Notes under the pieces: model-generated | Databases searched by the model: none | Seen by the model: the letters and a program-made list of their open reading frames with translations, nothing else | Told to the model about the DNA's origin: nothing | Shown: positions 16,329 to 50,060 of the stretch, one piece after another | Layout: the number at the start of each line of letters is the position of its first letter | Numbering within the stretch: position 1 is the stretch's first letter | Assembly: GCA_050331235.1 (NCBI GenBank) | Contig: JBHJHA010000024.1 | Span: forward strand, 1 to 55,906 | Direction of reading: 5' to 3' | Length of the DNA stretch: 55,906 bases | DNA from: Leptolyngbyaceae cyanobacterium | Lineage (GTDB): Bacteria > Cyanobacteriota > Cyanobacteriia > Phormidesmidales > Phormidesmidaceae | Made by a program: the position numbers and the translations under genes

Positions 16329-18974
16329 CTAATTTATCGTCTCTGGGTCGGGCAAGACAGTGCTGTTGGTTTCAGTTTCCCAATAGCGATAGTAGCGGCG
16401 CCATTCATCCAACAGTTCCCCCGTCCACAGCCAGTTATTTTGTCCCGGGGCAGACTCATCAACAATGCCGAGATTTTGCGGGGCCATCCAGTTCAGTTCA
16501 TCCAGCGCTTGGAGACGGCGAAAATATTCTTGGGCGATCGCCCGCTGCAAATCCGCCTCAGCATTCAAGATTCCCTGGTCGGTCTCGCTGGCAGTGCTGA
16601 GTCCTGGATCTTCTTCAAGACCGGCTAGATTCATGTTGCCGAGCCGTGTGTGAGCCATGACCAAACCGGCGTAGGCTTCTAAAACAGCGGGATCAGCCAG
16701 GGTATTGCTCGCCGGATCCGGCTGGCGCTGACGTTGCTCGTCATAAAGGGTCAGCGCCGCCTCCCAGTTGGCGATCGCACGATCCCAATCGCCTTCGTAG
16801 TATGCCGCAAATCCCCTGGCAATCCGCCCATCCATAAACGTATCGTCAGTTTGCGCCCAGGCATTGCGGGCCTGCTCAGCAAAGGTCCGCTGGTTGAAGC
16901 GACTGTCAAAATCTTGGGGATCAGCCTCTAACAAGGCAATCTCTTGCCAAGCAATGCGCCCTTTGACGTACAGCAAGTCGGACTGGTCAGCATCGCGCAC
17001 CCAGGGCCAAATGGCATCAGTCACGTCAGAGGGCGCGGCTTTCTCCATCAGGGCTTGGGTCAACGCCAGCTCAAAATCTTCGCGAGCGTCGGCATAGCGA
17101 TCGCCTTTAATGGCCGTTTCGGCTTGGCGGATTAGGGTCGCCACAGCAGGATCTGCCGGCTGGGGTGCCATACCAGGAAGTGTGACATCCGCTTCACTCA
17201 CAATAGAGCTCGTCCGAGGACCTAAGCCGGCCCAGCGCAACGCCGCCAAACTTAACCCGGTCATCCCAACGAGGCCAATCAGCCCCAAAGCAAACCACAC
17301 CAGCAGCGGCGGCGCGATCGCTCGCTGCTGGCGTTTACCGCTGTAAAGTGGCTTGATCTGCCTGGTCCCGATGGCAGCATCTGGCGCCCCGGTCGAAGCT
17401 GGCGAAGCTGCTCCCTGAGCAGACGGTGTAGAGACCTCTGGCAGGCGATCGTAGATAGTCATGCCAGAGCGCTGGGGCGCCTCATCGGTCAGCACTTCAT
17501 CCGCCCCCGCCGGTAGTGGGGGCTCATCAGGCTCTAGCGCAGTGTGGGATAGCTGCTGCACATAGGATGACAACAATTCGTCATCCGTAGGTCCAGGGAC
17601 AGCGGTCTGCTCCAGCTGATTGAGGAAAGTGGCGGTTGCCCCCGTGACGGCCATCTCCTCGGCGGCAGCGTGTGCAGACTCCCCATCAGCCTGCACCACA
17701 CTGGTGGCAGCAACATTCGGAGCGTCAGGCACACTAGACGATTCACCGGTCATCTCACCGGTCATCGGCGCAACCGCATGCAGCGGTGTCGGATTAGTGT
17801 CCCCAAGGACATCGGGATGCAGTTGATTATCGGCTTCGCGATCGCGCTTGGTCAGGTATCCATCAAAATCCGGGTGCAAATACAAAATCGGCAAGGCCCA
17901 ATAGGACTGGTCTGAGCCAAAGCCAGAAATGAGGCCCTGACGGGTACGACTTAGGCTGACATCAATGGGAAAGCCCTGGCGTAAATTGTGATAAAACAGC
18001 TGCGTGAAGGCGATCGCTACGTCATCGGGAATGCGCTCGGCCATAGCCACCACGCTGGGTACCCCGCGATTAACCAGTGCCTGCACAAGATTTTGTTGTC
18101 GCCAATCGACCTCAGCATCATCGTTAGCCGTATGGCCGCTACGACAAGAGTTGAAAATCGTTAGCGCCACTTGGTTATTCACCAGGAGTCCGGCCAAATC
18201 ATCCCCCGACAGGCGCTCAGTTAAGCCAGTCTGACGATTAACCAAAGATAAATCGCCGCCATTTTGGCCAAAGTCGCTGTGACCGGCGTAGTGCAAAATT
18301 TGATAGCTTCCCTGCTCCAGCTTCTGTGCCAGTTGGCTACGATCCGGCTGTTCCAAAATGTCCATCTGGATGGGGGACGGCTGCTCAGGGGTTCCTGTCA
18401 AAATCGCTTGAATCTGCCGCACTTCTTTGAGCAGTTGGAGATGGTCCTGATCCTGCGGGCTGGCAATTACCATCAACACTTGAATCGAAGCGGGCGCTGC
18501 TGGGGTTTGGAGCTCAGCAGCTTGCTCCACTAACAGGTTGGCTGCATAGCGGGCAAAGGTCTGATTGCCCCGAGTAGTGATGGGCTGTTGACCGTGGCGC
18601 AAAACTTCCCACGGGAGCCGCTGCAAACGACTGTCTTTGAGCCCCAGCCGCAACCGCAAGATTTCATTCCGGTTCTGGGCAATCCCTTGAGCCCGCAGCC
18701 AGCTTTCGCGAATGGCCTCATTTTGAAATAGGGCTTGGTAGAGCTGACTGCCTAGCTCATGTAGGGCACTGGTGCGATCGCCGAGATGTAGCGTGCCCTG
18801 TAGCAATCCGGCCACCGGATCAGCCATTGCGGGTTGCGCCAGCTGCAGCCACTGATCAACAGGCCAGTCAACCTGGGCCTCCGCCACTGGTACTCCTGCC
18901 GCAGTATCTTCCGTACGAATGAGATAGCGATCGCTACCCAGTGCAGTAATCGATAGATGAAATTCTTGAGTCAC
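16329..18974 (-). CDS. hetF: HetF-like CHAT (caspase-family) protease with TM helix and C-terminal TPR-like region
   Basis: N-terminus MTQEFHLSIT...YLIRTE...GVP.AE..V.WPV..WL matches HetF. Contains LPWE, catalytic HYAGHS and FNSC, WALPILY and one TM. Confidence 0.85.
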   Translation of the reverse strand: MTQEFHLSITALGSDRYLIRTEDTAAGVPVAEAQVDWPVDQWLQLAQPAMADPVAGLLQGTLHLGDRTSALHELGSQLYQALFQNEAIRESWLRAQGIAQNRNEILRLRLGLKDSRLQRLPWEVLRHGQQPITTRGNQTFARYAANLLVEQAAELQTPAAPASIQVLMVIASPQDQDHLQLLKEVRQIQAILTGTPEQPSPIQMDILEQPDRSQLAQKLEQGSYQILHYAGHSDFGQNGGDLSLVNRQTGLTERLSGDDLAGLLVNNQVALTIFNSCRSGHTANDDAEVDWRQQNLVQALVNRGVPSVVAMAERIPDDVAIAFTQLFYHNLRQGFPIDVSLSRTRQGLISGFGSDQSYWALPILYLHPDFDGYLTKRDREADNQLHPDVLGDTNPTPLHAVAPMTGEMTGESSSVPDAPNVAATSVVQADGESAHAAAEEMAVTGATATFLNQLEQTAVPGPTDDELLSSYVQQLSHTALEPDEPPLPAGADEVLTDEAPQRSGMTIYDRLPEVSTPSAQGAASPASTGAPDAAIGTRQIKPLYSGKRQQRAIAPPLLVWFALGLIGLVGMTGLSLAALRWAGLGPRTSSIVSEADVTLPGMAPQPADPAVATLIRQAETAIKGDRYADAREDFELALTQALMEKAAPSDVTDAIWPWVRDADQSDLLYVKGRIAWQEIALLEADPQDFDSRFNQRTFAEQARNAWAQTDDTFMDGRIARGFAAYYEGDWDRAIANWEAALTLYDEQRQRQPDPASNTLADPAVLEAYAGLVMAHTRLGNMNLAGLEEDPGLSTASETDQGILNAEADLQRAIAQEYFRRLQALDELNWMAPQNLGIVDESAPGQNNWLWTGELLDEWRRYYRYWETETNSTVLPDPETIN

Positions 18975-21527: not shown

Positions 21528-22373
21528 TTAGTTGTCTGTCGTCGATTGGGCAGCGCCTGGCGGATTGTCAGCCTCTAAACGAATGGAGTAGCTGCCATCT
21601 TCATTGGGCACGACTGCGCCTCCCAAGGCTTCAATATTTTCCACGGCCACCGCTCTGGTCTTATCATCGGGGGCTGTAGTCAATACCTGGGCCCAGGCGC
21701 CAATCTGCACTTGGGTTTGCACTCCTGGTTGCGCCTGGCTCTGGGCCAAAAAATCAGCCATCCCTAGTAGCGCCGCTTGATTTTGTTGGGCCTCAGGATA
21801 AGGGGACTGACTCGCCCACTCAGCAGCGGTCAAATGAGACGCGATCGCCGCCTCCACGTCATCAAGGAACAACAGTTCGTCAATGCCTTTGTTGCGCCAA
21901 ATTAGATAGCTGCGCGGCGGCAACGTCGGCGTGAGCTGCTGCAACCCTTGTCTTTGCAACTCGACCGCCTGCTGGGGCTGCCCGGCAAAGATCGACACGC
22001 TGCTCGACAGATAGGTGTAGAAAGGGTAGTAATAAGGATCACGGCTCAGGATCACCTCAAAATAATCAGGACTGAGTTCGTAACTGGTGGCTTGGCGAAA
22101 TTCGAAGTTGCCAAAGTATTGCAAGAATCGAAGAAATACCCAATCTGCCACCAGATTATCAAAGCCCAAACTGGGCATGGTTTTGAGCAGCGTCAACAGA
22201 GACTGAACCTCCAGGGCCTGAGCCTCGGCTCGCGGCTCGACCGTATCAGCGGCAGGCGATATCAACTCTCGCAAACGATTGCCTTGTAACCAAGCGACGA
22301 TGCCCAACAAGACCAGCACGCCTAACAGTTGGCCAGCGATCGCCCATTTTTTTGAGGCTTTTGGCTCAGTCAT
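21528..22373 (-). CDS. Conserved hypothetical membrane-anchored protein in the pilA locus
   Basis: N-terminal TM helix and P.LGFDNL.ADW.FL.FLQYFG motif. Co-oriented downstream of pilA and the methyltransferase. Confidence 0.75.
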   Translation of the reverse strand: MTEPKASKKWAIAGQLLGVLVLLGIVAWLQGNRLRELISPAADTVEPRAEAQALEVQSLLTLLKTMPSLGFDNLVADWVFLRFLQYFGNFEFRQATSYELSPDYFEVILSRDPYYYPFYTYLSSSVSIFAGQPQQAVELQRQGLQQLTPTLPPRSYLIWRNKGIDELLFLDDVEAAIASHLTAAEWASQSPYPEAQQNQAALLGMADFLAQSQAQPGVQTQVQIGAWAQVLTTAPDDKTRAVAVENIEALGGAVVPNEDGSYSIRLEADNPPGAAQSTTDN

Positions 22374-22417
22374 AGTCTGTCTAGATTAAGTAGCAGTCGC
22401 AACCATGCCCATAGCGA

Positions 22418-23737
22418 CTATCTAGACTCTAGCAGGACATATCCCGCCGCTTCTAACTCGGTGATGGCTCCGCGCATGGTCTCGAAAGCGGCTTGCGGTT
22501 CGGTCGGCACAGCGGTGATCAAGTCAACCGGCCGAATGGTTAGCCAGCGCCGCACCAGCGCTGCCATAGTCTGCGGTCCGTCGATCAAAGGATATAGACA
22601 GGCGGCGATCGCACTATCAACGGTCACCGGGGTCCCATCGATTTCTAGAAACTTATCGAAGGCGATCGCGCCCAGTTTTCGAGCTCCCGCCGTCAACACT
22701 GCACGAAATTCGGCTCGACAAAGCTGGGGATGAAAATAAACGGTGGCGTTCAGCCACTGTTCATCGGTCCACTCAATTGACGGCAGCGGCAGCGGCCCCG
22801 ACCACGGATGGCCGCAGTAAATATCCAACAGACGGTTGACCGGGTGCAGCAGCTCAAACAAGTAGATTTGTTCCTCGATGGATTTTTCGGCGATCGCAAA
22901 CGCCACCGACATGGGCAATTCTTCAATCCCGGCAAACAGTTTTTCTAAATCCCACTGTCGCCAGTTGACCATGCCGATAAACTCCAGCGCGGCGGCTTTG
23001 AGATGGCTCGAAAATTCTGCCATACTGACACCCTTATCTCCCCGCAGCAAATAGTTAGCGGCCAGTTGTTCATCATCGTGGGCTAGATCAGGCTCCCAAG
23101 TATGCTGCTTAGCCAATACCCAGTTCTGTAATGCAGTCATGGTTTGCCGAGTGGCAGTCAGTGTCTCGGTCGTCAAGTCACTGTTAAGCAACCCCAGCTC
23201 CGCAAAAAACTGCTGCACAAGATATAGCCGAAACCGCTGCGCTGAGCTGTGCATATTGACCCGAATGATGCCAGTCGGTTTCAGCACAGCCTGCATTGCC
23301 TTGAGGCCATCCACCGGATTATCCAATAGGTACAGCACCTCGTCACAGTTGATGTAGTCAAACTGATCGTCTAACTGTGATAGCGATTCGAGCGATAAGC
23401 AATGGAGCTCAACGCGATCAGCCAGTTGATGATGCTCCAAGCGTTGCTGGGCGATCGCAATTGACTTTTCTGACAAATCAACCCCAACAATTTTGGCCTG
23501 GGGATTAGCCAATGCCAGTGCTAGGAGTTTGTATCCCGTACCGCACCCCGCATCCAAAATCACTTTATTACTAGAGTTGATGACCGTTTTATAGCGCCGG
23601 TAGTAAGGAATGACGATATTATTCAGGCCCAAGTAATACAGATCGTCCTGAGGACTCTCCTCTAATGGGCGATAGGGGTAGGGTAGAGCATCAAAATGCT
23701 GCCGGACGCTCTCTCTTTGATGTGCTGGCTGGTTCAT
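22418..23737 (-). CDS. Class I SAM-dependent methyltransferase downstream of pilA
   Basis: ILDAGCGTG, GVDLS, FDYI.C..VL..L..P, LKP.G. Confidence 0.88.
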   Translation of the reverse strand: MNQPAHQRESVRQHFDALPYPYRPLEESPQDDLYYLGLNNIVIPYYRRYKTVINSSNKVILDAGCGTGYKLLALALANPQAKIVGVDLSEKSIAIAQQRLEHHQLADRVELHCLSLESLSQLDDQFDYINCDEVLYLLDNPVDGLKAMQAVLKPTGIIRVNMHSSAQRFRLYLVQQFFAELGLLNSDLTTETLTATRQTMTALQNWVLAKQHTWEPDLAHDDEQLAANYLLRGDKGVSMAEFSSHLKAAALEFIGMVNWRQWDLEKLFAGIEELPMSVAFAIAEKSIEEQIYLFELLHPVNRLLDIYCGHPWSGPLPLPSIEWTDEQWLNATVYFHPQLCRAEFRAVLTAGARKLGAIAFDKFLEIDGTPVTVDSAIAACLYPLIDGPQTMAALVRRWLTIRPVDLITAVPTEPQAAFETMRGAITELEAAGYVLLESR

Positions 23738-23920
23738 TACGTGGATTCGTGCATGGATAAAGATATTTCAGATACTGATGCCAATCAGTAAGAGCACTTT
23801 CATGAGCAATTTTTCGTCAAGCATCAGGAATTGAGGAATCCTTTTGTCTTGTGAAATCAATCGGTCAAGTTATTACCACAGCGATCAAAAACATATTCGC
23901 TGATTTTTCCAATTACAAAA

Positions 23921-23956
23921 GTCGAAAGCCGCCCTATCAATTTAGATAGAGCGGCT
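23921..23956 (-). terminator. Rho-independent terminator of pilA
   Basis: Minus strand reads AGCCGCTCTATC-TAAATT-GATAGGGCGGCT followed by TTCGACTTTT. Confidence 0.7.
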
Positions 23957-24029
23957 GGAAGAAAGCCCATCAAGACAACGAACACAGATAGCAGGGCCTA
24001 ATTATCGTGACAAAATAGCCAAGTCAAAT

Positions 24030-24563
24030 CTAGTTGACAGTCTCGCCACCGTTGCAAGCAAGCGCTCCAGCAGAGCCAGTGACACTGACTTCGAGCGTAT
24101 CGTTGTTTGCGTCAGCCGCAGATTCACGACAGAGAATAGCAGTGGTTTCCTGCTTAGTCGCGTTAGTCGTCAAGTATGAAGCAGCGGCAAAACCTCTAAG
24201 CTTTTTGTTCGCTGCAGGGTCTGCTGTGATCGTCGCATCATCACCGTAACCATTGACAGTGCCAATTGCAAATACATACAGCTCGCTATCTTCATTGATC
24301 CCGACATCCAGCAAGCTGAGAGCGTCTGCAAACGTGTTGTTCTCTAGGTAGTAAGCCTGCTGGTTACGGTTGACTGCACCGAGCGCGTTGGTGGCTTCAG
24401 TCTCGCGAGCACGGTTGGCCTGGTTGAGGAAGGAAGGCAGAGCAATCGCTGCAAGAATACCGATAATGATGATAACCACCAGCAGTTCGATCAGGGTAAA
24501 GCCACCCTCTTTCTTTTTGTCACGCAGGTGCTTGAGCAGGCTGTAAGCAAAGTTCGTTTTCAT
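24030..24563 (-). CDS. pilA: Type IVa major pilin
   Basis: Basic leader, G|FTLIELLVVIIIIGILAAIALP, NR.QQAYY.E and a C-terminal Cys pair. Confidence 0.93.
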   Translation of the reverse strand: MKTNFAYSLLKHLRDKKKEGGFTLIELLVVIIIIGILAAIALPSFLNQANRARETEATNALGAVNRNQQAYYLENNTFADALSLLDVGINEDSELYVFAIGTVNGYGDDATITADPAANKKLRGFAAASYLTTNATKQETTAILCRESAADANNDTLEVSVTGSAGALACNGGETVN

Positions 24564-26820: not shown

Positions 26821-28137
26821 ATGGCCCACACTGCTTGCTCTGCTTGGCGTCAATGGCTGCTGGCGATCGCCCTCACTGTTACTGGCTGGGGCGCGATGCC
26901 GCTGATCGCTTGGGCGCAGCTATCGCCGGTATTGGTCGATCAATTTTTGTCCGACCCAGAGCTGACCGAACCGCGGGACCCCCTCTTGCCAGAGCTGCCC
27001 GTGGTACGGCCTTTGAGCCCCCTAGAAAAATCAGCCCTTGAGGTCGAACTGGATGAACTGGCGGAAGAAGCCGAAACGCTGTATCAAGCCGGGCGTATTG
27101 AAGCAGCCTTTGAGCTGTGGCTACGGGAGGTCCGCCTGCGCCGAATTTTAGGCTACGAGGCAGAGCTAGAAGCGATTCAGCGGGTGGGGCTCCGCGCCTG
27201 GGAAAACTCTCGCGGAGAAGATGTACAGCTCATCACCTTGCGGCTGCGGCAGATACAGACTGACCTACTGAGCGAAGCCCCCCTCGACATTGAGCGATTG
27301 GAAGAGGTTGTGGCGGCATTTGAAGTATTGCGCGATGTGGATGCTGCTGTGGCTGTTTATGAGACGTTGATCGTCCGGGCAGCCCAAAGGGGCGATCGCG
27401 ACGAGCGCCAGCGGCTCCTAGAAAACCTAGCTAGCCTGCGAGAAAGCTGGTTTCGCTTTGCTGTAGCAGGGGAAACCTACCAGACCCTATTGAACTCTCT
27501 GGACAGCGATGAAAATCTGAAGGAAATTGAATATCTCAAAGGGGCCATTCGTAATTACCAAGATGCGGGTGACTTATCCACCACCATCACCTATCAGCGC
27601 CGACTGGTGCGGCAGTATGAAGCAACCTTACAGCCGCGCCCCATTCCTTCGTTGACTCTAGCGATCGCGCGCAACCTACGGGCGCTAGATAATCTTGATC
27701 AGGCTCAGACCTTCTATTCCACGACTTACACCACGGCCTTAACCCAGGGACAGACCGATGTCGCCAGCGACGCCCTCCAGGACTTGACCGAGCTGTATCT
27801 TGAGCAAGAAAAACTCGCCGACGTAATCTATCTCTATCAACAGCGGATTGCGGTTGAGCGGTTATCCTACAACGGCTATGGTTTGATGCAAACCTTTGAT
27901 CAGCTAGGTCAGTTTTACGAAGCCCAGGCGCAGCCGGAGGCCGCCATCGCCGTATACAAAGAGGCTTTGATTATCGCCGAACATCTGAATTATCGCGACG
28001 GCTATTTCAAGCTGCGCCTACAAAATCTGCTCTATGAGCAAGGACAATTAGACGTGCCTGCCCTCGAACAGCACCAAGCTAGCCCAGTAGGCCCCCTCCA
28101 AGATCCCGACGCCTGGTTGGGGAACGCCCAGCCATGA
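26821..28137 (+). CDS. Exported TPR-repeat protein
   Basis: Signal-peptide-like N-terminus and helical TPR-like repeats. Confidence 0.75.
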   Translation: MAHTACSAWRQWLLAIALTVTGWGAMPLIAWAQLSPVLVDQFLSDPELTEPRDPLLPELPVVRPLSPLEKSALEVELDELAEEAETLYQAGRIEAAFELWLREVRLRRILGYEAELEAIQRVGLRAWENSRGEDVQLITLRLRQIQTDLLSEAPLDIERLEEVVAAFEVLRDVDAAVAVYETLIVRAAQRGDRDERQRLLENLASLRESWFRFAVAGETYQTLLNSLDSDENLKEIEYLKGAIRNYQDAGDLSTTITYQRRLVRQYEATLQPRPIPSLTLAIARNLRALDNLDQAQTFYSTTYTTALTQGQTDVASDALQDLTELYLEQEKLADVIYLYQQRIAVERLSYNGYGLMQTFDQLGQFYEAQAQPEAAIAVYKEALIIAEHLNYRDGYFKLRLQNLLYEQGQLDVPALEQHQASPVGPLQDPDAWLGNAQP

Positions 28138-28181: not shown

Positions 28182-28769
28182 TCAACCTTGCCGATCTAGT
28201 TCCGCCAGGGCATAACGGGCGATCGCCAAGCTCAACCGAGCCTGTTCAACATCAGACAGATCTTGCCATTCAGACGCCGAGAGGGATTGCACCATGGCAT
28301 CCACAGATTCTTCCTGTCCGCTGCGCATCGCCAACGCCAACGGCCGGGCCATGACTTGCAAATCATCTACCGCCCAATCAGTCAGTATGGTTTGGGTGGA
28401 TACCACTAACTGGTCAATGAGTGCCTGACCATTCCCAGCGACCGCTTGCGCCTGATGGGCAATCTGCTGTAGCAACTGAGCTGGCATCCGCGCCCCAAAC
28501 TTTTGCATCAGGGCAGTTGCCAAAGCCGTGACTGACGACTCTGCCCATAACGCAGTCGCCAATTGAGAAACCTGCGGCCATTGAGAGACTACAGCGTCAT
28601 CCCAATCCGCATCTACCCCTTGCTCCAGCTGATCAACATACTCAGCCGTTTGAGGATCGTAAGGATTCCAGGGATGAGCAGAGGGCTGACTCAAGACTGA
28701 ATGTAGCAGCTCTAGTTCAGCCTGCTGCTGGGGATTAGCGGGAGTGGTGGAATTGGATGACTCATTCAT
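28182..28769 (-). CDS. Hypothetical helical protein, PatU3-like (inferred)
   Basis: HPWNP, MARPLALAMRS, W..LS.VEQARLSLAIARYAL. Lies downstream of the CHAT-FHA gene. Confidence 0.7.
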   Translation of the reverse strand: MNESSNSTTPANPQQQAELELLHSVLSQPSAHPWNPYDPQTAEYVDQLEQGVDADWDDAVVSQWPQVSQLATALWAESSVTALATALMQKFGARMPAQLLQQIAHQAQAVAGNGQALIDQLVVSTQTILTDWAVDDLQVMARPLALAMRSGQEESVDAMVQSLSASEWQDLSDVEQARLSLAIARYALAELDRQG

Positions 28770-29160
28770 AGTTTTGCTCTCAATAAGGGATGCACCGAGT
28801 AAGGGAGTTGGCGCGTGGGCACGATGAACCAGGTGGATAATTGGCTGAAGATAGCTACATTAGCCCTGTCAACAGTTCCGCATAAAACTCAGACAAGTTG
28901 AGATTCTGGAAAACTTCAGTCTGAGGTAGAGATATCAACAGCGCCTGAAATCCCAGCAATTTCGAACAATCAGCAGGATACAGTCCCCCATCGCCCTAAA
29001 CTGGCCCATAGTTTTGCCCACATAGCCTGTAGAGACCTTAACAAAAGTCAGGAGAAAATATCATCACTCCCAAGACAGCGCCTCTCGCCCTTCCGGAAGG
29101 TCGTCATAGCCAAGTCAAATTCGTGACCACATTCACCCTCACCGTCGCCGAGTTCGCCAG

Positions 29161-30762
29161 TTAGCCTTCGATAATGAATTCCATTAGGCGGCCTTGGGGG
29201 CTGCCAAAACGCAGCTGGGTGCCCGACTGCAGGTAAACCTCTTGACGATGGATATGTTGCCAGCCTTCGGTCTGGTGGCAAAATGTGCCATAGCGTGAAT
29301 CATCCTTGAGGTAATACGCGACGGAGAGACCGGCAGCCTGACCGCTCACCTGCCGACAAAATATCTCGCCGTGGTTCCCTGACACCCAGGGTTCTGGGAT
29401 CACCACATCATTTTCTGGCCGACGACCAACCCGCAAGGTGCCGCCGTACAAATACCAGACAAGGTGCGGTTCATCGACCGCGCGAATCGCTGCTACTGGG
29501 CTATTTGGGCAAGCTTCGCCGGGCAGGCGAGTGATCTCGGCATCTTGGTCAGACAAAACCTGGCTGTCAAAGTCAGGATGGCGATACAGCACTGGCAATG
29601 TCCAAGCCGGCTGGTTGAACTTGTACAAAGTCAACAAATGCTGGCGGGCGATCGCCACGGCTCGGTCCACGGGATTGCGTTCTGCCAGCGCTTGGGAAAA
29701 CACCTGAATGAAACTCAAGGCTTCCTCATCGGCGATCGCATCACGCATAGCAATGACTGCCGGCACACCGTGGTGCAGCAGCACCTCCGCTAAGCTACTG
29801 CGGGCCATAGTGTGCTCGGCTTGTTGATCAGGACGAGCGCCCCAACAGGTATTAAAAACGGCTAGCTTGACCCGATTGTGCAATAGCAGTTGCGCCAGCT
29901 CTGTACCGTTTAGCGTGGACTCCGTGCGGAGATAAATTAGCCCGCCATCCGGCGCAGGAATGCCGTGTCCTGAGTAGAAGAAGACATTGTACCCCCCTTT
30001 CTCAATGCTCTTAATGAGCTCAGTGGCCCGTGGCCGCACGAGTACATCGACCTGACAGGGAACCGCCATCCGAGGGCTAATCCCCGAGGTTCCCTCGCCC
30101 ATCAACAGCCGCTTGAGAAGCTCCGCTTCGACCTCAAGCTGCAGAGTATCCGCCGACTCGCGATCGCCGGGCACATCCGGCTCTCCTAACACCAACAAAA
30201 TCTTCAAGGCCGCATCCAACTCGACCTCTGCCAAGGGATCGACATCACTCGTAGTGCGGCTAAAGCGAATGTAATCATTCAGCGACATCGCCTGACGCCC
30301 AGGCTGGGGCTGCATGATCTCCCACGGTAGGCCAATCAAGTCGGGATCGCGAATATCGAGGGATAGGCATAGGGGATTACCCTGCCCCATGGCAATGCCC
30401 AAACTCTGATCCAAACTGCCTTTGATCGCTCCGTCAAATAGCCATTGCCAGAGCCGCACTCCCAAGGTTTGCATGAGTCGGCCCGTATATCCCTGCTCTT
30501 GACCATTGGGCGATTTGATTAGCTCGGGCGTCACCATCTGAGGGACGTAGGTAGACGGCACATGGGGCACCGCTGGCAATCCCCGTAGAGAAAATAGCTC
30601 TAGCCAAGTTTGCCAAAGCTGATTGAGTTCACTCGTCCAGGGGCGATCGTGGTGGACATAGCCACTCGGATAAGGAGCCTCAACCACCCAAATCGCATAG
30701 TGAGGCGTCGCCGCGTTAGAGAGTCGTTCAATAGCAATTCGCAGGCGGGTAGGCTCTGACAT
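29161..30762 (-). CDS. CHAT-domain (caspase-like) protease with C-terminal FHA domain
   Basis: LPWEIM, catalytic YSGHG and FNTCWG, WTLPVLY. FHA motifs VGR..ENDVVI....VS..HG.I ... S..GT. Confidence 0.88.
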   Translation of the reverse strand: MSEPTRLRIAIERLSNAATPHYAIWVVEAPYPSGYVHHDRPWTSELNQLWQTWLELFSLRGLPAVPHVPSTYVPQMVTPELIKSPNGQEQGYTGRLMQTLGVRLWQWLFDGAIKGSLDQSLGIAMGQGNPLCLSLDIRDPDLIGLPWEIMQPQPGRQAMSLNDYIRFSRTTSDVDPLAEVELDAALKILLVLGEPDVPGDRESADTLQLEVEAELLKRLLMGEGTSGISPRMAVPCQVDVLVRPRATELIKSIEKGGYNVFFYSGHGIPAPDGGLIYLRTESTLNGTELAQLLLHNRVKLAVFNTCWGARPDQQAEHTMARSSLAEVLLHHGVPAVIAMRDAIADEEALSFIQVFSQALAERNPVDRAVAIARQHLLTLYKFNQPAWTLPVLYRHPDFDSQVLSDQDAEITRLPGEACPNSPVAAIRAVDEPHLVWYLYGGTLRVGRRPENDVVIPEPWVSGNHGEIFCRQVSGQAAGLSVAYYLKDDSRYGTFCHQTEGWQHIHRQEVYLQSGTQLRFGSPQGRLMEFIIEG

Positions 30763-30874
30763 TAATCATCGTTGGAGTCACAAAACATTCGATTTCGATA
30801 TAGATAGGCAAGACCCTGATCCCAGCTGGTCGAAAGCCACAAGTGACCGTGACTTTTTGACCTTCATCACAGCA

Positions 30875-33106
30875 TTAGTCAGTACACAATCCCTGTTGAG
30901 TAGGGGATGTGTCAAGTAATTCGACGGCAAAAATTGGCAGGTCAGTTTGCAAGATCCACCCTTGATCACCAGGCAAGGCCACGGGCCGCGATCGCGGCAC
31001 TGCAGCTACCGCATCATCAATGTCATCAGGGCGATCGGCTAGAGCCGCCGGAGCCGGAGTCGAACACACCTGTAAACGCACCCAAAGCTGATCGTCCGGT
31101 GTCCGCTGGCGGCTACTAACCTTGACAACGCTGCCAATTGTCAAAAGCCGCTCCGGTGAGTCAACCGCCGCTGGCTGATCGAGCGCCGGCGGCGAAACAG
31201 TCGTGACGATTGTCGCCACGGTAGACGGATCAGGCACCTGTTGAATCTGGAAATAATCCCCTACGGTCAAATCGTTGAGCGAGGTCCCAGCCGCACCCGG
31301 CGGAGTCGCCGAAGGCGATAGAATTTCGCCATCTGGAACGGCAGCCGGCAGCTCAGAAGCAGCCTGGCCGCGCCACCATTGCCACCCCAGCGCACTGGCA
31401 ATGCCCAATAGCCCCAGCAGCACGACCACCGGCAGCAGCGAAAATCGTGCCCGTGGCGGCACCGTAGGCACTGGTGCAGTAGCAGCTGAGCTTACGGCCA
31501 CTGGTGCCGCCAAAAAGGTTTCCTGAGACTGAGTAGGAGGCAGGTTAGCTGGATTGAGATCGGCCAATCTGACCGGAACAGCCATGGGGGCCGCCACCCG
31601 TTGAGGGCTCAATCGCAACAGGCCCACAGTCACATTGTCGTGGCCATTCTGAGCGTTGGCTAAATCAACCAATCGCTTTGCTGTCGTCGGGATATCGAGA
31701 TCGCCCCGCAGGGCTGGCAAGAGCTCCAGCGACCAGCTCCGTTCCACCAAATCATGGTCGCTCAGACCATCAGAACACAATAGGATCACACTATGGTCGA
31801 CGATGGGAAATACCTGCACTGTCGGGTGCAAATGCATCTGACTGGCCATCCCCAACGCCTGCACCAGCGCCCCAGCGCCTGGATTTTGCAAAGCATCCTG
31901 ATACAGTTCGAGACCGAGTCGCATTTCTCGGGCGGCAATATCGTCATCGAGAGTAAGCTGCCGACAGCTCTGCGATCGCACCTGGTAGGCACGACTGTCT
32001 CCCAAATGCGCCACATAAAGCTGTCCGCCATAGACCAGAGCCATCACAATGGTGGTACCCATGCGATCGCGGTCTTGGCGGTGGTCCGCATCATTCCGCT
32101 CGACAATCACTTGATTGGCCGCGGTAATCACTTGCTTCAACGCTGTCACAACGTCTTGATGACGGGTCGGATGAGGGTTTAAGCAGGAGGGCAGTTGCTG
32201 AGTCACTACCGCGATCGCGCTTTGGGAAGCGACATCCCCTCCTTGATGCCCCCCAACTCCATCGCAGACGACAACTAACGGCACCGACGATGGCTGAAGA
32301 GACGCCTCAGGTGGCAGCTGCAGCGTTTGACTGTAACCACTTGGCGGCAAACAAGCATCTTCGTTACGCTGACGCGTCGGCCCGCGATCAGATTGGGTCG
32401 CCACTTGCACGGTCAAGGTCTGTTGCGTTGTCTGCTGCTCCATCGCCTGCTCTAGGGAATGCACCAGCCAGCGGCTCGTACCTTGACCCGACGCGAGGTG
32501 TTGGGTCAACCGAGAGAGATAATCGCGGATTTCTGCCGCAGCGGCGGATACTAAAGACTGCCAAGAGTCGCCCAGATCGGCCAAAGTCGGGGCCGGCTGT
32601 TGTTGCCACAGGGACAATAGCCGAATGTGTTCGCCATCGGCGCGCACTGTCTGGTCGTCAAGTAAACAGTGGGCCACTTGTTGCTCGACGCAAGGCTGCC
32701 AGAGCCGGGCACAGCGCCACAGCCAACATAGTTGCCGTAGTCCTGATGCTTGGGGCCAAAGGTCGCGCCAAATCGGCAACAGTAAAGGTTGGTCAGGCGA
32801 TTTCGGTGTCACCGCCAGTGGGACTTCCTCCAGCAAGAGCAGAGGCATTTGGTCATCAGGATGCATCACCTGGGTAAACGGACGGGGCACCGCGAGCGCA
32901 AACGTAGACAGCGCCAAGTAAGGCGCTGCCAAGGGAGGAACCACCTCAAGCGGTGGCGGCGGCACCTCCGGTTGCGTATCTTCCAACAGGGGGAAAGTCA
33001 GCACTCGATAACGGTCGGCTAGGTAGCTGCCGGACGTCAGCGACGTCGGGTTGGCTGCCTGAGCCCACAAAAATCGACGCATCGGCGGCGACTGTAACCT
33101 TGGCAT
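30875..33106 (-). CDS. PrpJ-like PP2C Ser/Thr phosphatase (kinase-remnant N-terminus, TM helix, SH3-like C-terminus)
   Basis: D.G..R..NED, CDGVGGH.GG..AS, MGTT, HLGDSRAY, LCSDGL, GHDNVT and a single TM. Confidence 0.88.
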   Translation of the reverse strand: MPRLQSPPMRRFLWAQAANPTSLTSGSYLADRYRVLTFPLLEDTQPEVPPPPLEVVPPLAAPYLALSTFALAVPRPFTQVMHPDDQMPLLLLEEVPLAVTPKSPDQPLLLPIWRDLWPQASGLRQLCWLWRCARLWQPCVEQQVAHCLLDDQTVRADGEHIRLLSLWQQQPAPTLADLGDSWQSLVSAAAAEIRDYLSRLTQHLASGQGTSRWLVHSLEQAMEQQTTQQTLTVQVATQSDRGPTRQRNEDACLPPSGYSQTLQLPPEASLQPSSVPLVVVCDGVGGHQGGDVASQSAIAVVTQQLPSCLNPHPTRHQDVVTALKQVITAANQVIVERNDADHRQDRDRMGTTIVMALVYGGQLYVAHLGDSRAYQVRSQSCRQLTLDDDIAAREMRLGLELYQDALQNPGAGALVQALGMASQMHLHPTVQVFPIVDHSVILLCSDGLSDHDLVERSWSLELLPALRGDLDIPTTAKRLVDLANAQNGHDNVTVGLLRLSPQRVAAPMAVPVRLADLNPANLPPTQSQETFLAAPVAVSSAATAPVPTVPPRARFSLLPVVVLLGLLGIASALGWQWWRGQAASELPAAVPDGEILSPSATPPGAAGTSLNDLTVGDYFQIQQVPDPSTVATIVTTVSPPALDQPAAVDSPERLLTIGSVVKVSSRQRTPDDQLWVRLQVCSTPAPAALADRPDDIDDAVAAVPRSRPVALPGDQGWILQTDLPIFAVELLDTSPTQQGLCTD

Positions 33107-33198: not shown

Positions 33199-33546
33199 TC
33201 AAGCATTTGCAGAGTCGTCAGACACCACTCGCGGTAAACCCATGCTGTAGTTTAGCGCCCGGCTCTTGAGGTTATAACTGATTTCGCCAGCCTGGAGCTG
33301 CAGCTTAATAAAATGCTCTAGGTCGGACCCAATCCGACGCAGATTATAGTCTGTCAGCGCCTCACCCTCTGCCGTCGCGACCAGCCGGTCAAATTCTTGG
33401 TTAACTTTCTGTAGGGCTTCGTCACTCCAGATAAACTCGTTGTCTGGGTCAACGTCCAGCGTCAACACTGAATCACTGGGCACTAGCCCATCGTCCACAA
33501 CCTCAGCAGCGTAGATAAATACATGACGAGTCGTTGATTTCAGCAT
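33199..33546 (-). CDS. ndhM: NDH-1 subunit M
   Basis: MLKSTTRH, LTLDVDPDNEF.W, YNLRRIGSDLEHFI, NYSMGLPR. Confidence 0.95.
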   Translation of the reverse strand: MLKSTTRHVFIYAAEVVDDGLVPSDSVLTLDVDPDNEFIWSDEALQKVNQEFDRLVATAEGEALTDYNLRRIGSDLEHFIKLQLQAGEISYNLKSRALNYSMGLPRVVSDDSANA

Positions 33547-35569: not shown

Positions 35570-35904
35570 CTCATCAGGACTTACGCAGTTTAAGACGGCG
35601 GACACTATCGGTAGGGGCCGGCTCCCGCGCTTCGGTCCAAGGGGAAGGACAGAAGCTCAGCCAGCCCGTCGAAATCTCAATGGGTGTGTAAGTCCTAGAA
35701 ACTCGTCAGATATGTCTGCTACTGTAACCAGTGACTCAGCAACCTCCATTAACCTACCTCAAGGTTTCAACGTCTCTGCAAAAAGATTGCAACTTTGAAG
35801 ACGCGAAATCTCACATCCTTAGTATCCTTATCGGAAAACAGTTCAAAAGTAGATGGTACGACAACCAGTTGCTCCAGTTTGAAGACTGGTGAGGAGTTTT
35901 GGGA

Positions 35905-38900
35905 ATGGTCAAGGTGCAAAATCGCTCATTATTTGTTTTACTGCTGGTCGCAGCCTGCTTAGCCCCGACCACCTGGGCGAGTGCCCGCCCTCATCGAATC
36001 GCGCAAAGCCCAATTGATAATCCCGATACCGTTGATAACCCTGACGCCGAGGGCGATCTTCCAGCTGAGGGCGATACGACTACTCCACCAGAACTATCGC
36101 CCACCTTTGACGCATCGCCCGCTGAGCTACCGGAAGACTCAAACTTGACCATCGAAGGGTCCTCGAGCATGGACACCATCACGCGATCGCTACTACGCAA
36201 CTTTCAACAGGACTATCCGGGTACGAGTGTAACTCTAGTGGAGCGTCCAACCGAGACCGCCCTACAAAATCTACAAGCAGGGTCCACAGATTTAGCCGCC
36301 ATTGGGCGCACTCTTAGCGATGAACAGCAGGCTCAGGGGCTGACCGCAGTCCCCGTCAGCCGTGAAAAAATTGCAGTCATTGTTGGTGCGAACAATCCCT
36401 TTGACGGTCAAATTGAGGCTGAAGATTTTGTCCGCATCTTTCGGGGTGAGGTGACCAACTGGATTGAACTGGGCGGCCCCGACCTCCCCATTCGCTTTAT
36501 TGACCGCCCCGAGACAAGCGACACCCGAGCCTCACTGGGGGACTACGAAATTTTTGAAGGTGATTTGAGCAACGGTGACAACGTTGTACGAGTGGAAAAT
36601 GACAGCACGGCTGAAGTAGTCGAGGCCCTGGGCGACAACGGGATTGGCTACGCGATCGCAAGTCAAGTCCTCGATCAGGAAAATGTACGGGTCGTGGCCA
36701 TGCACGATACCCTGCCGGACAATCCACAATATCCTTATTCCCAACCGCGCACCTACGTTTACCTAAGTACTCAAGAGACTCCCGCTGAAGTGGAAGCCTT
36801 TTTGGCTCTCGCCACCACTGCCGAGGGGCAAGCCGCAGTAGAGGAAGCGAAGGCCGCCGAAGCTGCTGATGTGGCCGTTGCAGATCTGCCAGACCGTGTC
36901 TCGGCTATGCGGCCCAATGGTCAAGGCTTTGTCACCGGCGATCGCACCGGCAATCTAAATTTTTGGAACGCCAATGGCACCACCGCTGGCGAGCCCCAAT
37001 CAGCCCATACGGGCCCGGTCACTGCGCTGGCCTTTAGTAATGACGGTCAGCGACTCATCAGCGGCGGGGCTGACGGCACCATTCGCCTGTGGGATAGCGT
37101 TGGCAATCCAATTGGTGAACCGATCAATGCTGGCCATGGCCCCGTCACCAGCCTGACGGTACAGTCCGATGGCAGCTTTATCAGCGGCAGCGACGAGGGG
37201 GTTTTACAACAGTGGAACAGCACTGGCAACCCCGTCGGCGCCCCCATCACCGGCCACGAAGACACTGTGCGAGATATTGCCCTGAGTCCCGATGGGAATG
37301 CCCTCATCACTGCCTCCGAGGATGGCACCATTCGCCGCTGGAACACCGCCGATGGCAGTGCTCTTGGTGATCCCTTAACCGGTCACCAAGGGGGAGTACA
37401 AGCCTTAACCGTTCAGCCCGATGGTCGGATTTTCTCTGGCGGCGCCGACGGCACGGTCCGTCAGTGGGACCAAAATGGCACGCAAGTGAGCGAGCCACTA
37501 CAAATTTCAGGACCGGTGAATGCGATCGCCCGCAACCCCGACGGCACCAGCGTGGCCGTTGGTGATGATACCGGCGCTTTGCAATACCTCTCCGGCGAAG
37601 GAGTCCCAGTGGGATCGCCCCTCACTGATGTCGGTGCCCCCGTCGATGATTTGGTATTTACCCCAGATGGTCAGCGCTTAGTCGTGAGTGCCGGTGAGAC
37701 TCCCCAGCTCCGAGACGACACCGGACAAATAGTCCCTATCCCCCAAGCCGATAGCCCTGACGAGACCGACTCTGCCCAGGCAACGGCCGGTTTGCCGCCA
37801 GAAATGTTAGAGCTGTGGGAGCAACTTGAGGGGCTACCGCCCCAAGTATTGTGGATTATTCCAGTCGCTGTCCTGGCCTTGCTGTTGCTAGGGCTCCTCC
37901 GCAGCTTCCGCCAAGATGAGGAGGAGCTGGATAACGATGAAGTCGTCGGCCTTTTGCCCGGTGAGCAGGCTGAGACAACCAACAGCTTAACCGCGGACGA
38001 CTTTACCACCGATGACTTCACAGCTGATGATTTTGGTCAAGCACCGGCAAACAGCGTTGCCCAGGCATCCACCGGTGGACCCGTTGCCGGATTCACCGCC
38101 GATGCTGAAATCGACACCTCCCTCACCAAAGCCAAGCAAACCTTAACTGAAGGCGTCAGCTTGGGCAATGCCGGACGCTATCAAGCTGCCCTCGAGCGCT
38201 TTAATAAGGCCATTGAACTCGCTGATATCGAACGCCTCAAAGCGGCGGCCACTGGAGCCTCGTTGGCAGGAGCTGGCCTGGTCATTGCTCGCGGTTTAGC
38301 TCGGCGAGGCACAGCCTTGGCAAATCTAGATCGACCGGATGAAGCCCTCAAGAGTCTCAACCGAGCCCTAGAAATGGATGGCAACGATGTTGCCGCCTGG
38401 ATTGGCAAAGGCAATGTCCTGGCACAAATGGGACAGCTTGACGAAGCTCTCTTTTGTTTTGACAAAGCGATCGAGCTTAATCCCAACCTAGCTGCGGCCT
38501 GGCAGGGTAAAGGGAACACCCTCAAGAAAATGGGTCGCGACGCCGAAGCCCGCAACTGCTTTAGCAAAGCCGAGTCCCTCGGTGGAGTCAATGAAGATAT
38601 TCCTATTGAGTTGGGAACACCGGCGATATCGAGCCCTGATAGCGTATCCCATTGGGTTGGCGACTCAGTAGCCTCAAACCCAGGACAGCAAGCCATGCGG
38701 CCGGCCAGTCGACCGGCCATTGAGCCAGGACCTCTGCCCGAAGCATCGACGTCCAATCAGCCTATGTTCAATCCCATCACTCCTGGTACCCTTCCAGCGT
38801 CACCGAGGCCCCATTCCATGCCACCAGCAGCACAGCCGCCCCGGGATACCCCGATTGGCCCGATTGGCATTACACCGCCGCCATCTCCTGTCTTGAGCAA

Positions 38901-39591
38901 TGAACTCGATGAGTTGCCTGCAGAACTATTGACGGCGATTAACAATCTGCCAGACGATTCCAACGCTTCCGGCTTGACGGGTCAAGCGGCATCGATGCCC
39001 ACTATTGAACCCAGTGCACCGTTGCCAGAAACTGCTGATACCGCTGTGCCACCAGACATTTTGCAATCGGTTACTTCGCTCCCTGCTGAGCCCGAGTCAG
39101 CAGCCCCCAATGCCCCGCTTTCAGCTCCGGTAGAGGTTCCCCGTGAAGTGAGCGCCATTTTGTCCGGCAACTCCGACATTCCGGCCGAAGAGGAAACCTT
39201 AGGAGCAGCAGCCGTTAAGGACCCCATGGCAACTTTCCTAGGAAACGATGCCTCTGTGGCCATGCGCCCGCCTGCTCATCAGCCGCCTGCAGCAGCATCT
39301 GTAGAAGAAATCTCAAGGTTTGCCCCGACAGTCCCACCGCGCAGTTCTGCACCAAGTACCGAGCCCCATACCCCAACCGCTGGGCCTACACCGACATCTC
39401 TGCAGTCCGGGGCAGCGATCGCACCAGATCAGCCAACCGATGACGACGCCTTATCAGGGGTTCCTCCCGAAGTTTTAGAGGCCCTCCGTGGCATACCCGC
39501 TGATTCCCCAGACAGCTTCGACTTACCACCCACGTCTCGACCCACACCACCACCGCCACCCACTAATCCGAGAATACGGGATGAGACCTGA
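35905..39591 (+). CDS. Multidomain membrane protein: signal peptide, PstS-like binding domain, WD40 propeller, TM, TPR, Pro-rich tail
   Basis: IEGSSSM and DRPE.S.T (PBP type 2); repeated GH...V..L....DG..I.SG..DGT.R.WD; one TM; TPR repeats; GAGGAG RBS before ATG 35905. Confidence 0.88.
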   Translation: MVKVQNRSLFVLLLVAACLAPTTWASARPHRIAQSPIDNPDTVDNPDAEGDLPAEGDTTTPPELSPTFDASPAELPEDSNLTIEGSSSMDTITRSLLRNFQQDYPGTSVTLVERPTETALQNLQAGSTDLAAIGRTLSDEQQAQGLTAVPVSREKIAVIVGANNPFDGQIEAEDFVRIFRGEVTNWIELGGPDLPIRFIDRPETSDTRASLGDYEIFEGDLSNGDNVVRVENDSTAEVVEALGDNGIGYAIASQVLDQENVRVVAMHDTLPDNPQYPYSQPRTYVYLSTQETPAEVEAFLALATTAEGQAAVEEAKAAEAADVAVADLPDRVSAMRPNGQGFVTGDRTGNLNFWNANGTTAGEPQSAHTGPVTALAFSNDGQRLISGGADGTIRLWDSVGNPIGEPINAGHGPVTSLTVQSDGSFISGSDEGVLQQWNSTGNPVGAPITGHEDTVRDIALSPDGNALITASEDGTIRRWNTADGSALGDPLTGHQGGVQALTVQPDGRIFSGGADGTVRQWDQNGTQVSEPLQISGPVNAIARNPDGTSVAVGDDTGALQYLSGEGVPVGSPLTDVGAPVDDLVFTPDGQRLVVSAGETPQLRDDTGQIVPIPQADSPDETDSAQATAGLPPEMLELWEQLEGLPPQVLWIIPVAVLALLLLGLLRSFRQDEEELDNDEVVGLLPGEQAETTNSLTADDFTTDDFTADDFGQAPANSVAQASTGGPVAGFTADAEIDTSLTKAKQTLTEGVSLGNAGRYQAALERFNKAIELADIERLKAAATGASLAGAGLVIARGLARRGTALANLDRPDEALKSLNRALEMDGNDVAAWIGKGNVLAQMGQLDEALFCFDKAIELNPNLAAAWQGKGNTLKKMGRDAEARNCFSKAESLGGVNEDIPIELGTPAISSPDSVSHWVGDSVASNPGQQAMRPASRPAIEPGPLPEASTSNQPMFNPITPGTLPASPRPHSMPPAAQPPRDTPIGPIGITPPPSPVLSNELDELPAELLTAINNLPDDSNASGLTGQAASMPTIEPSAPLPETADTAVPPDILQSVTSLPAEPESAAPNAPLSAPVEVPREVSAILSGNSDIPAEEETLGAAAVKDPMATFLGNDASVAMRPPAHQPPAAASVEEISRFAPTVPPRSSAPSTEPHTPTAGPTPTSLQSGAAIAPDQPTDDDALSGVPPEVLEALRGIPADSPDSFDLPPTSRPTPPPPPTNPRIRDET

Positions 39592-46561: not shown

Positions 46562-46631
46562 AGCCCAGTGCATCTCCACCATGTCCTTTGGCATCTTGCC
46601 ACTCACTCAACCCAGAATATTTGCATCCGCT

Positions 46632-48635: not shown

Positions 48636-48705
48636 GCGAGGATATCCCAAGGATCCCTGCCGACTAGACCCATGACCAAACGACAATCAAACACAAGGTG
48701 AAGCT

Positions 48706-49833
48706 ATGGAATTGATGATTGAAGACCTGATGGAAGAAGTCATCGAGCGCGGTGGGTCTGACCTCCATCTATCGGCTGGACTGCCGCCCTACATTCGCAT
48801 CAGTGGCAAACTCACACCCACTGAACACGAGCCCATGAGTCCGGAGGCTTGCCAAAGGCTGATTTTCAGCATGTTGAATAATAGTCAGCGTAAGGCCCTG
48901 GAGCAAAACTGGGAACTAGATTGTTCTTACGGTGTGAAAGGCCTAGCTCGGTTTCGAGTCAATGTTTATAAAGACCGCGGAACCTATGCCGCATGTTTGC
49001 GGGCACTCAGTTCCAAAATTCCTAGCATGGATCTATTGGGTCTGCCTCCTATCGTGCGGGAGCTATCCGAAAAACCTCGCGGGTTGATTTTGGTGACGGG
49101 ACCTACGGGTTCGGGTAAATCCACCACCCTGGCTTCCATGATCAACGAGATCAATATGACTCGCCCTGAGCATATTTTGACCGTTGAAGATCCCATCGAA
49201 TTCGTCTATGAGCCAATCAAAAGTCTGATTCACCAACGGCAAATTGGAGAAGATACCAAGAGCTTTGGTAACGCACTCAAAGCCGCCCTACGGGAAGATC
49301 CAGACGTCATTCTAGTAGGTGAGATGCGGGATTTAGAAACGATTTCACTCGCAATTTCAGCCGCTGAAACCGGTCACCTAGTGTTTGGCACACTGCACAC
49401 TAGTTCGGCCTCCCAAACGGTTGATCGCATGGTCGATGTCTTCCCACCCGAGCAACAAACTCAAGTCAGGGTGCAGCTATCTAACTCATTAGTTGCCGTT
49501 TTGAGTCAGTGCCTTGTCCCCAAGGCCAATCCTAAGCCAGGTGAGTTTGGTCGAGTGATGGCGCAGGAAATTATGGTGGTCACCCCAGCAATCTCTAACC
49601 TCATCCGAGAAGGTAAGACAGCACAAATCTACGGTGCCATTCAAACTGGTGGTCGCTTGGCGATGCAAACCTTAGAGAAAGTTTTGGCTGACTTATACAA
49701 AGCAGGTTCAATTTCCTTTGAAGCTGCAATGTCCAAAACTTCTCGGCCAGAAGAGCTCCAGCGTTTACTCGAGGGTAGTGGCGGTGCTGCCGCTGCTGGT
49801 AAGCAAGCCGCCGCCGCTGGACGTCGTCGTTAA
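48706..49833 (+). CDS. pilT: Type IV pilus retraction ATPase
   Basis: GSDLHL, GPTGSGKSTT, LREDPDVILVGEMRD, AISNLIRE. Confidence 0.96.
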   Translation: MELMIEDLMEEVIERGGSDLHLSAGLPPYIRISGKLTPTEHEPMSPEACQRLIFSMLNNSQRKALEQNWELDCSYGVKGLARFRVNVYKDRGTYAACLRALSSKIPSMDLLGLPPIVRELSEKPRGLILVTGPTGSGKSTTLASMINEINMTRPEHILTVEDPIEFVYEPIKSLIHQRQIGEDTKSFGNALKAALREDPDVILVGEMRDLETISLAISAAETGHLVFGTLHTSSASQTVDRMVDVFPPEQQTQVRVQLSNSLVAVLSQCLVPKANPKPGEFGRVMAQEIMVVTPAISNLIREGKTAQIYGAIQTGGRLAMQTLEKVLADLYKAGSISFEAAMSKTSRPEELQRLLEGSGGAAAAGKQAAAAGRRR

Positions 49834-49844
49834 ACCTCGAGTAG

Positions 49845-49897
49845 GCGTCGCACTCATGCTCATGACTTCAGGAGATATTTGAGCTTGGGTGCGACGC
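49845..49897 (+). other. 18-bp stem-loop between pilT and pilC
   Basis: GCGTCGCACTCATGCTCA...TGAGCTTGGGTGCGACGC with one G-U pair and one mismatch; no U tract. Confidence 0.6.
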
Positions 49898-50060
49898 ACC
49901 TCTTCAGCCCCCCAAAAAGCAATTTCACTTTATGCGCTGTGTGCTAACGTATCGGCATCTCAACAATCTTAGGAAGCACGCAGCTCTCTCAATCGGTCGC
50001 TCCCGTAGGATGTTGCCCATTGCCAAAAGACCGACTTCTCACTATTGATGCCTAAAGATT

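Follow-up and report, generated by a model that had tools for sequence, protein, structure and literature searches.

A CHAT-FHA protease and its small neighbour, a distant PatU3 paralogue, as a likely twin of the HetF-PatU3-sigmaHetZ cascade in cyanobacteria

Three genes lie side by side in the 55,906-nucleotide stretch analysed here (the window; contig JBHJHA010000024.1 of assembly GCA_050331235.1, from a Leptolyngbyaceae cyanobacterium), and they raise the question of whether a PP2C-type phosphatase, a CHAT-family protease with a fused FHA domain and a small helical protein form one regulatory pathway, and what that pathway would control. An initial annotation of this DNA had read them as three intact, co-oriented genes, and the coordinates, strand and domains of the 743-, 533- and 195-codon open reading frames (ORFs) all agree exactly with that reading (table 1); the intergenic gaps are 112 bp between the PP2C and protease genes and 391 bp between the protease and small genes. 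The module is conserved and real, and it is likely to be a twin of the HetF-PatU3-sigmaHetZ cascade. By analogy with that cascade we propose, with a probability of roughly 55%, a second one made up of the CHAT-FHA protease, a PatU3 paralogue and HetZ-related protein 2: the protease would cut the neighbouring PatU3 paralogue after Arg149, cleavage would free HetZ-related protein 2 (a probable sigma factor encoded elsewhere in the genome), and the FHA domain would read threonine phosphorylation as a possible input. The basis for this proposal is the intact catalytic dyad, the homology to PatU, the conserved aligned Arg149 and the joint occurrence of the three genes.

The middle gene had been described as encoding a CHAT protease with an intact His/Cys dyad fused to an FHA domain, and on this point Pfam, the orthologues and the structure model are in full agreement. 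The Pfam matches are to CHAT (PF12770; E value 7e-19, 68.9 bits against a cut-off of 24) and FHA (E 1e-10, 42.2 bits), and both dyad residues are universal in 80 non-redundant orthologues, to which 129 full-length proteins were reduced at 80% identity. The AlphaFold model resembles Csx29 (Z score 24.5, root-mean-square deviation (rmsd) 3.8, 306 residues aligned) and separase (Z about 24), and its FHA part matches FHA domains with Z of about 15 (EmbR, Z 15.4, rmsd 1.9, 97 residues aligned). Asp345, which is present in 73 of the 80 orthologues and lies in the interface predicted below, presumably occupies the position of the S1 aspartate, and by analogy we infer that the protein is a cysteine protease cutting after Arg. 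It is 33% identical over 325 columns to the window's own HetF-type protein, and these two CHAT genes are the only ones found in the genome. Its score with the HetF model NF045509 (165.7 bits) is far below the cut-off of 1200, it has no hydrophobic helix, and a separate HetF-type gene is present, so on sequence grounds it is a soluble HetF paralogue and not HetF. The HetF-type gene is 10 kb away here; in most other genomes a long distance lies between the two, or they are on separate contigs; in one genus (family f3, e.g. G139:C1:1227616-1228797) the HetF-type frames have about 590 codons in place of the usual 800–900.

The third gene had been taken to encode a small helical protein, and the model of its product is indeed all-helical (mean predicted local distance difference test score, pLDDT, 84). 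Pfam and NCBIfam give no meaningful family for it, fold searches with the model gave no clear match (best Foldseek E 0.64, best VIA Z 6.8), and an Atlas search found its own family only; among the solved structures no PatU relative was seen, so these fold-search results say nothing about PatU. None of 121 genomes matched a DNA pattern built from the published cut-site peptide of PatU3, and PatU was identified instead as the gene after hetZ, close relatives of which are named PatU in the sources; in this genome it follows hetZ on contig C11. When 140 small-protein sequences were compared with 53 PatU sequences, profile against profile, hhalign gave a probability of 91% (E 1e-6, 99 columns), and 12 PatU rows gave 72%. 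Reversed PatU reached 1.7%, the best of 60 block shuffles 4.4%, and the CHAT and PP2C alignments 3.8% and 2.0%, respectively. At E <1e-3 the PatU profile finds 26 of the 139 reported small proteins, and the small-protein profile finds 13 of the 53 PatU proteins; the N-terminal P-W motifs of the two families were also joined in a global alignment. The small gene neither adjoins hetZ nor encodes a PatU C-terminal domain, as a PatU orthologue would, and we regard its product, from these profile matches, as a distant PatU/PatU3 paralogue.

HetF cuts PatU3 after R117 (PMC9457339), and residue 117 of the 258-AA PatU3 protein P0275 is Arg, which confirms the numbering. The equivalent Arg is kept in 51 of the 53 PatU proteins. 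Arg149 of the small protein aligns with it, is kept in 134 of 140 homologues, and in the model stands at a helix end with a loop next to it. The initial annotation had suggested modelling the CHAT protein with the 195-AA protein; protease residues 1–410 with small-protein residues 10–195 gave a complex score of 0.78, and the best of three controls gave 0.00. Of 157 solved pairs 116 reach the score mark, as do 2 of 215 mismatched ones, rates that apply only roughly to predictions made with our own alignments. The runs share at least 75% of their contacts, with a partner pLDDT of at least 72, and the predicted interface comprises protease residues 304–306, 342–348 and 381–385 and small-protein residues 132–143 and 146–151, the latter placed against the protease surface that carries Cys306. 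The prediction supports binding of the 136–151 segment at the catalytic cleft. The profile match, the aligned Arg and the predicted complex thus all favour the earlier suggestion that the third gene encodes a PatU3 paralogue and probable protease substrate, and by analogy with HetF and PatU3 we think cleavage of the small protein by the CHAT-FHA protease quite probable.

What cleavage would release is suggested by gene distribution in one draw of 301 genomes across the phylum. The small gene is present in 89 of these (one copy truncated), the CHAT-FHA gene in 88 and the gene for HetZ-related protein 2 in 90; 87 genomes have all three and 211 have none. Intact HetF is found in 75, intact PatU likewise in 75, and 74 have both, counts that exclude 19 weak or partial matches to the HetF model and one PatU fragment. 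Twelve genomes have the protease, the small gene and HetZ-related protein 2 and no intact HetF or PatU, and one (G203) has HetF, PatU and HetZ and none of the three, so the CHAT-FHA/small pair appears to have been inherited separately from HetF/PatU; since the module is retained where HetF/PatU are missing, something other than heterocysts is likely under its control. The 90 genomes with HetZ-related protein 2 are all 89 with the small gene plus G187 (270 contigs), which has the protease and no small gene. In the present genome HetZ-related protein 2 is encoded at G000:C58:60359-61459 (+) (locus L124), unlinked to the trio; it scores 559 bits with NF037965 (cut-off 400) and also matches NF037963 (E 5e-23) and sigma70-ECF (E 0.01). 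Its counterpart in Anabaena PCC 7120 is all4254. Promoter-directing sigma activity is known for HetZ and HetZ' (PMC13342950), and by analogy HetZ-related protein 2 is likely a sigma factor. PatU is not its inhibitor in 16 genomes, since those have no intact PatU, and we consider it somewhat probable, by the same analogy, that the small protein acts on it as an anti-sigma factor.

Of the 87 genomes that hold both genes, 69 have the protease gene immediately upstream of the small one (for G080 the strand was taken from a separate analysis), which is above chance; so do 71 of 78 named loci (two of the 80 had flanks too short to be included). The full trio is linked in 50 of 71 close loci and in only 33 of 61 phylum-wide loci (drawn from 64 of 88), so that synteny, proposed earlier as a check, holds more often for the protease and small genes than for the trio. 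Several genomes show decay. In G011 a stop-riddled FHA remnant lies directly upstream of an intact small gene, in G285 the small gene is truncated, and in both HetF is without its catalytic part. In this family (f5; G011:C16:56147-57070, G285:C99:3237-3563, G011:C28 and G285:C56) both CHAT proteases and PatU have been lost, and HetZ-related protein 2 and PP2C are still kept. In G041, a single-contig genome with HetF, hetZ lies inside a 943-codon frame (G041:C1:3382045-3383067, L341) and patU was not found; G273, without HetF or canonical HetZ, retains a PatU fragment (G273:C67:136375-136503), a joint decay of the known module. Next to HetZ-related protein 2 there is an MshEN/T2SSE-like gene in 25 of 47 loci, but not at the locus of this genome, a weak hint of a connection with pili or motility.

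The FHA domain could supply an input. Of its phosphothreonine-pocket residues, S461 is present in all 80 orthologues and R447 in 67; conserved Arg and Ser residues of this kind have a role in phosphothreonine binding by FHA domains (PMC3953482). The linker between the CHAT and FHA domains carries a T-x-[LI]-P motif whose Thr411 is a candidate phosphosite; linker residues 408–419 have pLDDT below 50, and the motif was not found after the CHAT domain of two HetF proteins. In the small protein we found no Thr with strong conservation, and it therefore offers no obvious FHA ligand. Gating of the protease by phosphorylation, for example through Thr411, is a tentative suggestion from sequence conservation, to which we give slightly less than even odds.

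A number of observations weigh against the proposed cascade. BLASTP does not join the small protein to PatU significantly (E 0.30), and hhalign against single sequences gives only 4% and 0.5%. Searched against the present genome, the small-family profile places PatU (E 0.009) behind an unrelated ORF (E 0.003), and the small gene is not recovered with the PatU profile. The small protein lacks the C-terminal 100 or so residues of PatU, ending where those begin. The controls for the complex were unrelated proteins, with HetF and PatU not among them, and close cousins also pass; the fold is like that of solved separase and Csx29 complexes, so memory of these in the predictor may contribute to the score. 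The genomes in which the genes co-occur are kin, so there are few independent losses or events. The evidence joining the module to HetZ-related protein 2 consists of co-occurrence only, its gene is never adjacent to the small gene in the loci examined, and it is retained in G011 and G285, neither of which has the protease; in G285 the small gene is not intact either. In the FHA domain, Arg447 is kept in only part of the orthologues, and the usual Asn of the S-x-N-G-T loop, needed for binding and present in Dun1 and Mek1, is Tyr or Phe in most (Tyr491 in the window protein; Asn in 4 of 80).

The trio has counterparts in the model strain. In Anabaena PCC 7120 the genes all1732 (NdhM), all1731 (PP2C), all1730 (CHAT) and all1729 (hypothetical) are consecutive, the last two being labelled unknown (PMC13056922); all1731 is prpJ, and PrpJ is described as needed for heterocyst glycolipid synthesis (PMC6161253). 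By gene order, size and annotation the window trio corresponds to prpJ, all1730 and all1729, and on these grounds the 195-AA protein is likely the orthologue of All1729, and the PP2C probably that of PrpJ, in line with the initial annotation, which compared the phosphatase with PrpJ-type PP2Cs. The window protease is 50% identical to P0545, a 525-AA Nostocaceae protein that we take from its length and accession series to be All1730, and is likely the All1730 orthologue. HetF paralogues with the His-Cys dyad and no membrane helix have been noted before (PMC3566145). A literature search made largely without subscription papers, and without the PrpJ papers, in which the neighbouring genes may be described, turned up neither a functional study of all1730, all1729 or HetZ-related protein 2 nor a report of all1729 as a PatU paralogue. 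A HetZ chromatin immunoprecipitation peak at the all1730 promoter is present in the wild type and in the hetZ and hetP mutants alike, and was therefore not counted as regulation.

On the phosphatase our view departs from the initial annotation, which made the three adjacent genes one switch: a membrane PP2C, responding to a signal at the cell surface, would reverse the phosphorylation that gates the protease. That the first gene encodes an intact PP2C with a membrane helix is well supported: Pfam PP2C_2 matches with E 5e-13, a solved cyanobacterial PP2C with E 7e-36, the RxxNED, DGxGG, GDSR, DGLSD and GxDN residues are present throughout an alignment of 45 proteins (the window's own plus 44 orthologues), and there is a single hydrophobic helix, at residues 555–573. 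The N-terminal domain has template modelling (TM) scores of 0.61–0.63 to kinase clusters among Atlas models, feature matches to EssB/YukC below 0.9 and a weak hhalign match to the kinase fold (probability 10%, E 0.003); HRD and DFG motifs were not found in it, and from its predicted fold it is a probable pseudokinase. The CxxxxC...CxxC zinc ribbon that relatives carry at the PP2C start (window 33026–33106) is missing here, as it is in locus L007. The part beyond the helix is variable, with little conservation, and at least 2 of 30 aligned orthologues have hardly any of it, which does not bear out surface sensing. The single-switch reading gains from the linkage of the trio, from the PP2C gene staying with the protease in three genomes with a relocated small gene (G247, G002 and G263), and from a T-[QK]-x-[ILV] motif in the juxtamembrane segment, of a shape bound by FHA domains, found in 44 of 71 linked PP2C orthologues against 5.1 expected from shuffling, in none of 11 from module-negative genomes and in none of 7 second paralogues. 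That count is inflated by relatedness, however; the window PP2C does not have the motif, and among 23 best matches from other module-positive genomes only 3 do. Of 46 genomes tested, 45 have a close PP2C homologue; 13 of the 46 lack the module, and 12 of these still have one. The PP2C is also intact in the two genomes with a decayed protease. No kinase gene is present in the cluster, and ndhM, a housekeeping gene upstream of the trio, is linked about as often (33 of 61 phylum-wide loci), a control which shows that linkage by itself is no proof of shared function. A dedicated reset is thus not upheld. We consider it unlikely that the adjacent PP2C is the resetting enzyme, somewhat less likely still that a Ser/Thr kinase signal switches the protease through the FHA domain and Thr411, with PrpJ as reset, in a more widespread All1730-All1729-All4254 cascade, and the single surface-sensing switch rather improbable. 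In G080 a second ORF containing an FHA domain lies upstream of the PP2C gene (L274:187-1179).

The remaining alternatives concern what the protease does with its neighbour. The small protein might be a bound inhibitor or pseudosubstrate, as securin is, the true substrate being another protein; the predicted interface is mostly a hydrophobic docking of residues 132–143, away from the scissile bond, and the closest fold is that of separase, which securin inhibits, but a pseudosubstrate would be expected to lose the P1-type Arg, and the one here is nearly universal and homologous to a proven cut site, so we think this improbable. Equally improbable is that the protease cuts the small protein with cell division as the output, by way of a divisome partner and not a sigma factor. 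PatU3 does have a second role, with Ftn6/ZipS (PMC9457339, PMC12288457), and All1729 belongs to the ten-gene core set of filamentous species (Table 4 of PMC2821919), but this would leave unexplained the matching distribution of HetZ-related protein 2, found in all 89 small-gene genomes, and division and sigma roles are not mutually exclusive. That the genes are merely old neighbours or clade markers with no common pathway is very improbable: the protease/small linkage is broken in 18 of 87 genomes (one of the same genus) and housekeeping ndhM is linked too, but the genes are jointly present even when unlinked and jointly absent in G203 and within family f8, the cut site is homologous and the complex prediction passes.

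Table 1. Positions in the window of the genes, domains and residues discussed
Feature	Position	Strand	Basis or remark
PP2C, 743 AAs	30875..33106	-	ORF and Pfam
PP2C N-terminal domain, residues 10–228, predicted kinase-like fold	32423..33079	-	Atlas models, hhalign
PP2C catalytic domain, residues ~230–500, metal-binding motifs intact	31607..32419	-	Pfam and motif alignment
Predicted transmembrane helix, PP2C residues 555–573	31388..31444	-	Kyte-Doolittle 2.43
CHAT-FHA cysteine protease (inferred), 533 AAs	29161..30762	-	ORF and Pfam
Catalytic His266 codon (YSGHG)	29965..29967	-	kept in 80/80 orthologues
Catalytic Cys306 codon (NTCWG)	29845..29847	-	80/80 orthologues; 304–306 in predicted interface
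Thr411 of T-x-[LI]-P, CHAT-FHA linker, candidate phosphosite	29530..29532	-	Thr 78/80, Pro414 80/80
FHA domain, Pfam match 444–520	29203..29433	-	Pfam and alignment; G446, R447, S461, H464 kept
Small helical protein, 195 AAs	28182..28769	-	ORF and structure model
Asp136-Arg149 (DLQVMARPLALAMR), predicted docking helix ending in predicted P1 Arg149	28323..28364	-	alignment, complex prediction
HetF-type gene, 881 AAs, 10 kb off	16329..18974	-	paralogue, outside module; NF045509 518 bits, cut-off 1200
ndhM, housekeeping neighbour	33199..33546	-	linked in 33/61 loci; all1732 in Anabaena

Around the module, a TPR-like gene of 438 codons (26821–28137, +) is convergent with the small gene, with hemC next; this arrangement stands beside the small gene in about a quarter of 80 close loci. 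Further off are a gene for a 1230-AA protein with PBP-like, WD40 and TPR domains and a long Pro-rich tail (35899–39591, +), a type IV pilin gene adjoining a methyltransferase gene (21528–24563, -) and pilB-pilT-pilC (46581–51281, +). Counts of predicted promoters and terminators are near shuffled levels (4 versus 2.6 and 9 versus 5.3). A role in phage defence was rejected from the genomic context and distribution.

In filamentous cyanobacteria, control of cell fate and division centres on HetF-PatU3-sigmaHetZ. If the proposed cascade is correct, it would give roles to all1730, all1729 and all4254, conserved genes of unknown function in the model strain, and would name the bond cut (after Arg149), a phosphosite candidate (Thr411) and an output candidate. 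In the less likely version with a kinase signal and PrpJ as reset, PrpJ would gain a target, and phosphorylation-gated, caspase-like proteolysis would control a sigma factor. The initial annotation keeps its PatU3 paralogue and substrate and its PrpJ-type phosphatase, loses the dedicated reset and the surface sensing, and had missed the probable output, an unlinked sigma-like protein of the HetZ family.

The nearest known system is that of HetF (Alr3546), PatU3 (Alr0101) and sigmaHetZ (Alr0099)/HetZ' (Alr0202) in Anabaena, which has the same kind of clan CD CHAT protease with a His/Cys dyad, a partner of the same PatU family with the same Arg, and a co-distributed HetZ-family sigma-like protein. 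The window protease differs in being soluble with a C-terminal FHA domain, whereas HetF has a membrane helix and TPRs; its gene is linked to that of its putative substrate, whereas patU is linked to hetZ; the putative substrate is without the C-terminal ~100 residues of PatU; and the module is more widely distributed, reaching 12 sampled genomes without intact HetF or PatU. The all1732-all1729 locus shares the order ndhM, PP2C, CHAT, hypothetical, with similar sizes (PMC13056922), and the window PP2C differs from the PrpJ family in having no N-terminal zinc ribbon. More distantly, Craspase (Csx29-Csx30-CASP-sigma), SAVED-CHAT and DdvA/DdvS have the same CHAT fold (Z 24.5 for Csx29, 19.9 for SAVED-CHAT and 16.8 for DdvA). 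In Craspase and DdvA a CHAT protease frees or holds a sigma factor. Unlike these systems, the window module has no CRISPR or defence genes nearby and is single-copy, vertically spread and set among housekeeping genes, and its protease carries an FHA domain where Craspase and SAVED-CHAT sense RNA or nucleotides. Separase, which is sensitive to phosphorylation in eukaryotes, has the same pseudo-protease plus protease domain fold (Z about 24) and a P1 Arg, whereas the window protease is bacterial, has 533 AAs and a fused FHA domain, and would act on an unrelated substrate.

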